Of a stretch of 24,913 bases of DNA, positions 10,275-11,736 are shown one piece after another (the first letter of the stretch is position 1; every line of letters begins with the position of its first letter). Origin of the DNA: a virus (lineage: Duplodnaviria > Heunggongvirae > Uroviricota > Caudoviricetes); the IMG/VR virus record IMGVR_UViG_2537562172_000005, one strand, 5' to 3'. Below the pieces are notes generated by a model. That model ran no database searches and was not told where the DNA came from. It saw only the letters and a program-made list of their open reading frames with translations. Position numbers and translations under genes: made by a program.

Positions 10275-10471
10275 TTGGCGAGGTGACGGGAGTTAAGTAG
10301 AATTGCTGCGGGTGCTTGAGGCTATCTGCCTCAGGCATGAACACCAAAAGGCAGATAGAGAAAAGCCCCAGTTAACATTACGCGTCCTGCAAGACGCTTA
10401 ACATTAATCTGAGGCTCAATCTATGAACGGCAAATCTAGGTTAGCCTCTTACGTGCCGAAAGGCAAGGAGA
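10275..10471 (+). promoter_or_regulatory. hok promoter and mRNA leader, severed from hok by the IS
   Basis: -35 TTGGCG / -10 TAGAAT; leader starting GCTTGAGGCTATCTGCCTCA with overlapping hairpins and ending ...GGCAAGGAGA closely resembles the plasmid R1 hok leader as I recall it. Confidence 0.5.
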
Positions 10472-11509
10472 TGTATGGGTCCACCACATATTGCAATTTT
10501 TGTTCTCTCTTAAAATATATTCCACGGGCGTCATTAGTGCGAGCGCCTTATGGGGCCTTTTGCTGTTATACAGCACCAGATATTCCCCCAGCTTCTGATT
10601 AAATAGCGCCAGATCTTCAAAGAGTAAAATCTCATTAAATTCAATAAACTGCTCTCTTAACGTCCGGTTAAAACGTTCACAGATAGCGTTCATTTTGGGT
10701 GTGTAGGGATAGGTCCAGAGGTGTTTGATAGCGGCTTCCTGCAGCGTTTTGTCGAAGTTTCCCAGGAACTCTTTTCCGTTATCTGTGATTATCTGGCTGA
10801 TACCGACCGGGAACAGCCGGGCTGCACGGCTGAAGAAGTGATTGACGATATCACTGTTGAGCGACGGTACAGCCAGCGCCAGCGCGTAATTGCTGCATTC
10901 GTCGATCATGGTGATGACATAGCGACGCAGTTCGCCCATTCTGAGCTCAATGGCGTCCATCCCAATGAGCTCACCTGTCTTTACCGGGCGGTAGTGCTTT
11001 GGTCTGCGGGGTTTGGCAGACCGCTTTTTGACAAGCAGTGCCTTCCCCCGCGAGCCCAGACGCACAGGTATCATTCGCATTTTATCGTGTGCGGCAGCGA
11101 TCATTCTGCCAATGGTGGAAACACTTGGACAGGCCAGATAGCGCTGTTCGCACCAGGGCTTCAGGCGAACAAAAATCTGCTCTTTACCGAGGTTCGGCAG
11201 CTCTGTTCGCAGCCGTCGAATCTCTTTCAGCACATCGGGATGCCAGTGCTTTTTTCGTCGCACCAGAGGTGCCTTACTGTGCGGGATTAGCCCCTCAGGT
11301 CCTCCCTTGTTCAGTAACTGACGCCACCAGTAAAGCGTGCGGCAGGACACGCCAAAGGCTTCAGAAGCTGCAGAAATACCGTGTTTATCCCAGAAGTGCA
11401 GAGCCTTCATTCTCATTGTTGCTGTATCAGCCATCACTGAAAGCCTCAACGCATAATCGGCCGTTTGGTAGTACTTAGGATAGCCAACCATCAGATGCTG
11501 CATTTGCAT
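10436..11509 (-). CDS. DDE transposase (rve/integrase-core superfamily)
   Basis: 357-aa ORF; N-terminal HTH; D..D(ITDNGKEF)..E(CERFNRTL) catalytic triad; ORF runs through the IS end, stop supplied by flanking DNA. Confidence 0.8.
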   Translation of the reverse strand: MQMQHLMVGYPKYYQTADYALRLSVMADTATMRMKALHFWDKHGISAASEAFGVSCRTLYWWRQLLNKGGPEGLIPHSKAPLVRRKKHWHPDVLKEIRRLRTELPNLGKEQIFVRLKPWCEQRYLACPSVSTIGRMIAAAHDKMRMIPVRLGSRGKALLVKKRSAKPRRPKHYRPVKTGELIGMDAIELRMGELRRYVITMIDECSNYALALAVPSLNSDIVNHFFSRAARLFPVGISQIITDNGKEFLGNFDKTLQEAAIKHLWTYPYTPKMNAICERFNRTLREQFIEFNEILLFEDLALFNQKLGEYLVLYNSKRPHKALALMTPVEYILRENKNCNMWWTHTSPCLSARKRLT

Positions 11510-11567
11510 AGTGCAATCTCCCCTTACTTATCCGGAGGTAATTGCAATATCTCTGTGAACTTACACA
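10472..11567 (-). mobile_element. Insertion sequence (IS481/IS3-like, single transposase ORF)
   Basis: About 1.1 kb; imperfect terminal inverted repeats beginning TGT and ending ACA sharing ATATTGCAATT; flanked by direct repeat GGAGA (10467-10471 and 11568-11572). Confidence 0.65.
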
Positions 11568-11580
11568 GGAGAAGCAGGCT

Positions 11581-11736
11581 ATGAAGCAGCAAAAGGCGAT
11601 GTTAATCGCCCTGATCGTCATCTGTTTAACCGTCATAGTGACGGCACTGGTAACGAGGAAAGACCTCTGCGAGGTACGAATCCGAACCGGCCAGACGGAG
11701 GTCGCTGTCTTCACAGCTTACGAACCTGAGGAGTAA
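11581..11736 (+). CDS. hok: Hok/Gef-family type I toxin
   Basis: 51-aa MKQQKAMLIALIVICLTVIVTALVTRKDLCEVRIRTGQTEVAVFTAYEPEE; TM helix plus conserved Cys/periplasmic tail; closest to HokD/HokC as I recall them. Confidence 0.85.
   Translation: MKQQKAMLIALIVICLTVIVTALVTRKDLCEVRIRTGQTEVAVFTAYEPEE

Follow-up and report, generated by a model that had tools for sequence, protein, structure and literature searches.

An ISKpn28-group insertion sequence splits a prophage hok/sok locus at the hok Shine-Dalgarno sequence and recurs at the equivalent position in other hok loci

Insertion elements near the reading frame are known to have inactivated hok toxin loci of Escherichia coli K-12, as well as hokX of E. 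coli B (Pedersen and Gerdes 1999, as summarised in PMC7337300 and PMC7232551). Durrant et al. (bioRxiv 10.1101/527788) found hok homologues near insertion hotspots, four in E. coli and two in Klebsiella pneumoniae, and suggested adaptive disruption. Among the elements of K. pneumoniae, the insertion sequence (IS) ISKpn28 was mapped by Adams et al. to 49 distinct sites (PMC5343135), and a preprint on anti-CRISPR genes places an ISKpn28 transposase beside FlmC in plasmid leading regions. Here we analyse a stretch of viral DNA of 24,913 nt (IMG/VR record IMGVR_UViG_2537562172_000005; hereafter the window), in which a hok/sok toxin–antitoxin locus of the hokW/hokD type is split by an IS of the ISKpn28 group. 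An original prediction, made from the sequence alone, had described a hok locus divided at its ribosome-binding site, and the parallel that it drew with published hok loci interrupted by insertion elements agrees with the two summaries cited above. We consider a targeted insertion that disables hok to be likely, with less confidence in the silence of hok and in the cause of the target preference.

The insertion is real and derived. The hok promoter and leader, the latter recognised by Rfam, lie to the left of the IS, and an intact hok open reading frame (ORF), recognised by Pfam HOK_GEF, lies to its right (Table 1), exactly as the original prediction had divided them; its estimate of about 1.1 kb for the element also stood, with the extent now sharpened to 1,096 bp. 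The GGAGA direct repeat that it reported does flank the IS on both sides and is the hok Shine-Dalgarno sequence, which places the insertion at the ribosome-binding site. A 5/5 match between IS-flanking pentamers is expected by chance in about 1/1024 cases. Removal in silico of the IS and one GGAGA yields a 455-nt sequence (...GGCAAGGAGAAGCAGGCTATG). Of 5,426 complete E. coli genomes, 3,928 have it as one unbroken match, with a best match of 99.6% in a pig isolate, and it also occurs in about 100 phage records, including that of phage 933W, where it is annotated as hokW/mokW/sokW. Because this empty allele is found uninterrupted in natural E. coli and phage loci, the insertion is derived; the contiguous leader that had been restored on paper matches natural alleles, and the proposed comparison with relatives turned up the IS-free form, so the objection that no such ancestor exists falls away. 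The leader–IS junction of the window was itself found in 54 E. coli genomes at 93.8-100% identity.

The ends of the IS were defined by copies in unrelated contexts, which match the query (window positions 10460-11580) at its positions 13-1108; an IS copy covers at least 80% of this query in 1,147 E. coli records. The element runs from TGTATGGG to CTTACACA, and its TGT...ACA termini and imperfect inverted repeats (10472-10498 and 11540-11567) bear out the earlier description, with agreement at about 19 of 28 positions and a perfect ATATTGCAATT core. TGT termini are typical of the IS481 family, and the length of ~1 kb, the inverted repeats starting with TGT and the short target duplication all conform to it. 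The transposase carries the Pfam domains rve, rve_3 and HTH_28/32, is identical to RefSeq WP_001178394.1 ('IS481 family transposase') and has NF033577 transpos_IS481 as its best NCBIfam model (219.9 bits against a curated cut-off of 224, 4.8e-65; next best IS3, 97 bits). A PADLOC search of the transposase returned no match. Compared with a copy annotated by RefSeq as ISKpn28 family, the window IS shows 76% nucleotide and 80% amino-acid identity. ISfinder convention treats elements as the same IS from roughly 95% nucleotide or 98% amino-acid identity upwards, and on this scale the window IS is related to ISKpn28 but distinct from it.

No stop codon ends the transposase ORF within the IS; the frame reads past the left end and finds its stop in the flanking DNA (window 10436-10471 on the minus strand; also L011 1487-1528, L002 and L008). 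At hok sites the C-terminal additions comprise 11-13 codons, reading SPCLSARKRLT in the window, SPCAKRGKRLS at an IncF plasmid site and PPCKLHGKRPYWC in ISKpn28, each followed by a stop. The stop codon of the window transposase overlaps the predicted sok -10 hexamer. The RefSeq ISKpn28-family reference protein contains the hok-encoded C-terminal residues, and copies elsewhere are annotated as 'missing C-terminus' pseudogenes. As to copy number, the E. coli genome IAL7255 (NZ_CM130730.1) has 38 places matching the junction query and several others have 12-16 (UTME-14, UTME-9 and RM14723 were also noted); such multi-copy genomes indicate bursts of the window IS.

The invaded locus is a disrupted member of the hok/sok type with all its defining parts. 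It has a Hok/Gef ORF, a structured leader with an antisense sok assigned by homology, and complementarity between the 5' and 3' ends of the hok mRNA. The continuity of mok and hok is lost: mok is broken after codon 16, its frame ends in the IS at 10602, and the two are contiguous in the reconstructed allele only. In 933W, mokW starts 57 nt 5' of hokW as an in-frame 19-codon extension of hok, and the IS-free reconstruction has the same spacing. The Rfam family RF01794 matches positions 10310-10477 on the + strand with 109 bits against a gathering score of 59. This family is named 'sok antitoxin', but its + strand match corresponds to the leader of the hok mRNA, up to the AUG of hok, with sokW of 933W on the opposite strand, and it is to be taken as the hok leader rather than as Sok. 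The hok product shares RefSeq accession WP_000813254.1 with K-12 HokD and is the identical protein.

The 3' fold-back element is understood from the established biology of R1 hok/sok, in which it acts through tac/fbi pairing. In the window, the partners GGGTGCTTGAGG and CCTCAACGCACCC are complementary over 12 pairs with one bulged C, and the IS adds 1.1 kb between them; both are present, yet they can no longer share one transcript of normal length. The sok gene and its predicted core promoter are untouched, the IS end lying 5 bp upstream of the predicted sok -35 hexamer. This promoter is assigned on the model of R1 sok, which we take to apply here; the equivalent hexamers of the IncF locus are TTGCGC and TATCCT. 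The uncoupling of hok from its mok/sok region, as originally predicted, is apparent in the layout: the IS stands between the hok ORF, on its right, and the promoter, the leader, the start of mok, and sok, all on its left.

The same position is occupied by the same IS lineage in other hok loci. In the leading-region hok of the IncF plasmid pLD39-1 (after psiB), the IS is identical to that of the window at 1096/1096 positions, with the junction ...GCGCAAGGAGA/IS/GGAGAAGAAGGCCATG (here and below, slashes mark junctions). In a chromosomal hok between cysH and cas3, the IS is 97.5% identical and has its own duplication, GACAT, which overlaps the ATG. On an E. coli plasmid, a hok of the Klebsiella plasmid type carries the ISKpn28 copy compared above at ...TTTGCAAGGAGG/IS/GGAGGAGTAAACCATG. 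The flanks of the compared hok loci are just 53-61% identical, against 97.5-100% for the E. coli IS copies; the insertions are separate. ISKpn28 copies that are 100% identical stand at the hok site in three different hok variants, and a 93% ISKpn28 variant stands there in an allele found with the 100% variant on another plasmid. Among PLSDB plasmids, 1,362 have the ISKpn28–hok junction; the junction of the E. coli-type IS with IncF hok is present in only 10 of the roughly 4,500 plasmids matching that query.

To widen the sample, the IS right end was used in an exact-match scan, which gave 33 viral and at least 120 metagenome loci; together with other retrieved loci, these make 161 copies. Among these copies listed there are 54 distinct right flanks, and 10 of them (50 copies) have the start of a hok ORF no more than 16 nt from the IS, on the same strand. 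These ten represent hokD/W, several IncF and Klebsiella types, a hokA-like type and the cysH type; two further flanks show the hok Shine-Dalgarno signature and are then truncated. In a genome of 5 Mb containing about ten hok loci, roughly 1 in 10^5 insertions would be expected at hok at random. No hok was found at the opposite IS end in any of the 56 full copies among the matches listed. Separately, in a 553-bp contig of E. albertii (L005), the IS right end adjoins a hokD-type locus on its 3' side, with the relative orientation reversed; this reflects either an artefact of draft assembly or a different insertion, one downstream of hok.

Inspection of the duplications points to a rule for the target. 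CAA lies directly 5' of the duplication in 6/6 non-hok sites with an intact duplication (TTTCAA/TACTC, TTTCAA/TGCTC, GTCAA/AAGCG, TTCAA/GCGTG, GTCAA/GAGTG and AGCAA/GTACG), and the hok sites follow it as well (GCAA/GGAGA, GCAA/GGAGG and GCAA/GACAT). Besides the GGAGA of the window, the 5-bp duplications recorded for other copies are GACAT, GGAGG, TACTC, GCGTG, GAGTG, GTACG and AAGCG. Only one of the nine CAA/TTG positions in the window locus has been used. Taken together, these patterns indicate that target choice is probably sequence-directed and orientation-specific. Recognition of a hairpin was considered as well: a small hairpin ending in GCAA stands just 5' of the duplication in each hok leader, and a similar one at one non-hok site; the other non-hok sites have none. 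A second GCAAGGAG occurs in the window at about 4021-4028 on the minus strand and carries no IS. Solo IS right-end fragments in E. coli chromosomes were considered as old hok footprints and rejected, being pieces truncated by IS4-family elements and IS2 that are not near hok. A protein-based locus search of one-genome-per-species contigs gave five short fragments only, because draft contigs break at the IS.

These data give the following account of the locus. An intact ISKpn28-group IS transposed into the prophage hok/sok locus, duplicating GGAGA, the hok Shine-Dalgarno sequence. On its left stand the promoter of hok, the 5' part of the leader, the region targeted by Sok, the start of mok, and sok with its predicted core promoter; on its right, one GGAGA, the intact hok, the 3' fold-back element and the terminator. 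With hok promoterless and mok translation ending in the IS, hok would fall silent. The position would reflect target choice by the IS lineage, with CAA just 5' of the duplication and GCAAGGAG(A/G) favoured; GCAAGGAG combines the predicted sok -35 hexamer with the hok Shine-Dalgarno sequence, both conserved in hok loci, and the transposase gene always lies antisense to hok. As a side effect, the stop-less transposase ORF is closed by a stop codon of the hok leader. The hok position of the IS is probably not accidental.

The best-surviving alternative, which we nonetheless regard as unlikely, is that the IS has no preference for hok: insertions would land widely, and those that inactivate hok would be kept since its loss is advantageous or harmless, a survivorship effect. 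Durrant et al. (bioRxiv 10.1101/527788) read the hok/sok hotspots as possibly adaptive disruption, other IS families (IS150 and IS186) also lie near K-12 hok genes, and most distinct sites of the IS are not at hok. Selection, however, would accept any disrupting position and either orientation, whereas the element occupies the homologous nucleotide in one orientation in at least 10 diverged hok loci, with 0/56 copies inverted. Eight other CAA/TTG positions in the window locus stand unused, and the non-hok sites obey the CAA rule, which argues for a sequence-directed step.

After the insertion, hok is most likely silent, and the toxin–antitoxin module disabled though every part is intact, because hok has no promoter of its own and mok translation ends inside the IS. 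The transposase gene lies on the minus strand, opposite to hok, and is directed into the hok leader. For transcripts entering from the hok promoter, there is a terminator-like site at 11000-11023 in the IS, and a strict consensus scan found no + strand promoter in the hok-proximal part of the element. Translation of hok normally depends on mok, and the predicted minimum-energy fold of 11540-11830 (-111 kcal/mol, z = -5.2), in which GGAGA and the AUG region are paired, agrees with this view.

The original prediction had instead proposed that outward transcription from the IS reaches hok, in which case the toxin would be expressed free of mok/sok control, re-wired rather than silenced. This we find very unlikely, and that part of the prediction was not upheld. 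A GGAGA remains 8 nt 5' of the hok ATG, the hok ORF is intact and identical to that of K-12 HokD, and the IS481 of Bordetella has outward promoters; yet the transposase here reads away from hok, the consensus scan detected no promoter directed at hok within the right end of the IS, and in the predicted fold both GGAGA and the AUG are base-paired. Moreover, unregulated Hok is lethal, yet 54 E. coli genomes and 1,362 plasmids carry the junction stably. At 11549-11572, the duplicated GGAGA is able to pair with the right end of the IS (UCUCUGUG with CACAGGAGA), which would hide the hok Shine-Dalgarno sequence in a read-out transcript. A hairpin TCTCTGTG...CACAGGAGA formed by the IS right end and GGAGA was considered as a meaningful feature and rejected as coincidence, since the complementary bases differ in ISKpn28 (TCTGTGTG with GGAGG).

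Least probable of all is a single ancient insertion that homologous recombination or gene conversion then carried into other hok loci, without repeated transposition: short conserved cores do border the site (GCAAGGAGA on the left, GGAGAAG.AGGC.ATGAA on the right) and hybrid loci without matching duplications (e.g. L082, L129 and L097) show that recombination between IS copies probably occurs, but the conserved flank of just 9-17 nt is too short for efficient homologous recombination, the GACAT duplication of the cysH-cas3 hok proves a separate transposition event, each non-hok site has its own 5-bp duplication, and nearly identical IS copies stand within flanks that are 53-61% identical.

Resident copies may also have taken part in rearrangements. 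In K-12, the homology of hokD to the hokW-type locus starts at AGGAGA, the exact IS insertion point (L165, from the K-12 derivative CJ236, 844-915), and upstream of it stands relBE (...GCGTTGAC/AGGAGAAGCAGGCTATG). On a Klebsiella plasmid (L172) and on a 243-kb metagenome contig (L063 7999-10945), this sequence from downstream of relE adjoins ISKpn28 at its left end, and a different hok comes next; RelB and RelE of that Klebsiella plasmid are identical to those of K-12. This arrangement suggests that upstream regions have been swapped among hok loci through the IS. In six metagenome contigs (L082, L097, L116, L129, L135 and L142), the IS is bordered by a hok leader on one side and by a different hok or unrelated DNA on the other, and lacks a matching duplication. 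Beside the IS left end, 17-18 nt of hok leader or relE-downstream sequence are missing in L173 (around 625) and in the left flanks of L092 and L116, which look like IS-adjacent deletions. The ISKpn28 copy between relBE and hok on the 243-kb contig is itself interrupted at position 759 by an insertion of ~1.25 kb (L063 9361-10606).

A broader idea, which we hold to be doubtful, is that ISKpn28-group elements are dedicated 'hok-homing' elements that depend on the locus they invade. They would recognise the sok -35 hexamer and hok Shine-Dalgarno sequence, borrow the hok-leader stop codon for their transposase and probably termination in the sok region, be restrained by antisense transcription from the hok promoter, and use hok loci as safe landing sites that travel with plasmids and prophages; copies parked at the same GGAGA would then recombine and exchange the upstream regions of hok genes, which would explain the relBE-hokD fusion of K-12.

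Several points weigh against the reading of a targeted insertion that disables hok. About 80% of the distinct sites among the copies listed are not at hok, and ISKpn28 has been found in mgrB at +91 in colistin-resistant isolates (PMC6101004). The metagenome part of the sample, at least 120 loci, is partly clonal. CAA plus 5 bp is too short to account for the hok enrichment, so that either a longer preference, for instance for GCAAGGAG, or selection must come in as well; selection for loss of hok function may contribute. Some flank combinations have no duplication and may stem from chimeric assembly at the repeat or from recombination between copies of the IS. The IS481 score of the transposase falls 4 bits under the curated cut-off, and the promoter scan, relying on a strict consensus, could miss a weak or hybrid outward promoter, which bears on the presumed silence of hok.

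Over the IS query, the window is 100% identical to the chromosome of the porcine E. coli K_EC180, and its content is a small Stx2e prophage inserted between ompW and yciE, with the gene order integrase, dicB/dicA, SIR2-like gene, hok region, DUF968, RusA, Q, tRNAs, stx2eAB and a truncated terminase. The prophage spans only ~22 kb (window 1-22400) and looks defective because of this small size, the truncated terminase and the absence of annotated morphogenesis genes except as fragments. Directly upstream of the hok locus, the SIR2-like gene may be a prophage-borne defence gene; its product has weak PADLOC matches to Aga_SIR2 and PDC-S21 (about 1e-06). The 29-aa hydrophobic ORF that follows may encode a small membrane peptide.

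Table 1 Features of the interrupted hok/sok locus and of neighbouring genes in the window
Feature	Position	Strand	Basis or remark
SIR2-like protein gene	9076-10107 (RefSeq start 9148)	+	Pfam SIR2_2, 1e-05; directly upstream of hok locus
29-aa strongly hydrophobic ORF (MLVLKCALAIAAVVAIYCLAIVLMDRLSD)	10178-10267	+	Ends just 5' of hok promoter; absent from RefSeq annotation
hok promoter-like site TTGGCG-17-TAGAAT	10275-10303	+	Consensus scan, 9/12 matches; just 5' of Rfam leader start 10310; putative function
hok mRNA leader, 5' part	10310-10471	+	Rfam RF01794; aligns with 933W hokW leader and IS-free allele
5' leader element GGGTGCTTGAGG	10310-10321	+	Complementary to 3' fold-back element
sok antisense RNA gene	10361-10431	-	Coordinates transferred by alignment from annotated sokW misc_RNA of phage 933W (AF125520)
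mok, first 16 codons	10423-10471	+	ORF list; frame continues into IS as 59-aa ORF 10423-10602
Transposase ORF, 357 aa	10436-11509	-	Last 11 codons and TAG stop (10438..10436) outside IS, in hok leader
Predicted sok core promoter	10438-10466	-	-35 TTGCCT 10466..10461, 17-nt spacer, -10 TAACCT 10443..10438; placed relative to sokW 5' end
Left GGAGA target duplication	10467-10471		Abuts IS left end; right copy 11568-11572 abuts right end
Probable IS481-family insertion sequence, ISKpn28 group, 1,096 bp	10472-11567	-	Ends set by copies in independent contexts
Right GGAGA copy, Shine-Dalgarno retained by hok	11568-11572		8 nt 5' of ATG
hok toxin ORF, intact, 51 aa	11581-11736	+	Pfam HOK_GEF (PF01848) 1.2e-23; also in-frame 3' part of mok
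3' fold-back element CCTCAACGCACCC	11786-11798	+	Reverse complement of 10310-10321 plus one extra C
hok intrinsic terminator	11805-11830	+	Terminator scan: 7-bp stem, then T run
tRNAs	16548-16620 and 16725-16798		Two called by Rfam, third annotated by RefSeq; all precede stx2eAB
stx2e	about 16891-18126

These observations bear on how hok loci are counted. Annotation pipelines call the hokD of the window an intact toxin gene, though the module is almost certainly disabled, and the same annotation issue applies to the hok locus of the 1,362 PLSDB plasmids that have ISKpn28 at this site. Some of these plasmids carry blaKPC (e.g. pKP18-8-KPC2), and counts of 'functional' addiction systems on such plasmids may be too high. 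The repeated arrival of one IS lineage at one hok nucleotide would offer a mechanism for the published hok/sok hotspots and a tractable case of the choice of an asymmetric target by a DDE transposase. In addition, the relBE-hokD breakpoint suggests that such elements reshuffle toxin–antitoxin loci.

The inactivation of hok loci by insertion sequences and the standing of hok as an insertion hotspot have both been published before, and the lineage-wide regularity is a modest addition to them. In the literature, we found no paper describing one IS481-family lineage at a fixed position and orientation in hok loci, nor one on IS481 with hok, IS481 with Stx2e or hokA/hokC with IS150/IS186 that describes such an association. 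Like hokA, hokC and hokE (IS150/IS186) and hokX of K-12 and B, as far as the published summaries describe them, the window locus has an element near an otherwise intact hok frame that is absent from other strains. Unlike those cases, the element is assigned to IS481 rather than IS3 or IS4, it sits exactly at the Shine-Dalgarno sequence, 5 bp from the sok -35 hexamer, its host is a prophage locus of the hokW/hokD type, and the same lineage repeats the position in many hok paralogues. The locus is also consistent with the hotspots of Durrant et al., whose main text mentions neither IS481 nor ISKpn28 and names no element or site; beyond that survey, the present study identifies one IS lineage, one nucleotide position and one orientation.

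A close relative of the element is ISKpn28 of K. pneumoniae, with which it shares the length of 1,096 bp, the termini, the ATATTGCAATT core, a 5-bp duplication, the hok insertion point and orientation, and an ORF that runs out of the IS; the two differ in that their identity reaches only 76% at the nucleotide and 80% at the transposase level. As for the host locus, its reconstruction is about 94% identical to hokW of hokW/mokW/sokW in the Stx phage 933W, where the locus is uninterrupted. Its Hok protein is identical to that of hokD (relF) in the K-12 Qin prophage, which, unlike the window locus, has no leader and is fused to relBE at the nucleotide where the window IS sits. With regard to targets, IS481 of Bordetella is directed to NCTAGN, and IS1397 inserts into repetitive extragenic palindromic (REP) sequences. 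REP sequences are likewise the target of ISPa11 (cited in bioRxiv 10.1101/527788). The window IS resembles all three as a DDE insertion sequence with a target that appears sequence-directed; it differs from them in that its target is asymmetric, with CAA beside the duplication, and lies in the regulatory element of a toxin–antitoxin system rather than in a palindrome or a repeat family.

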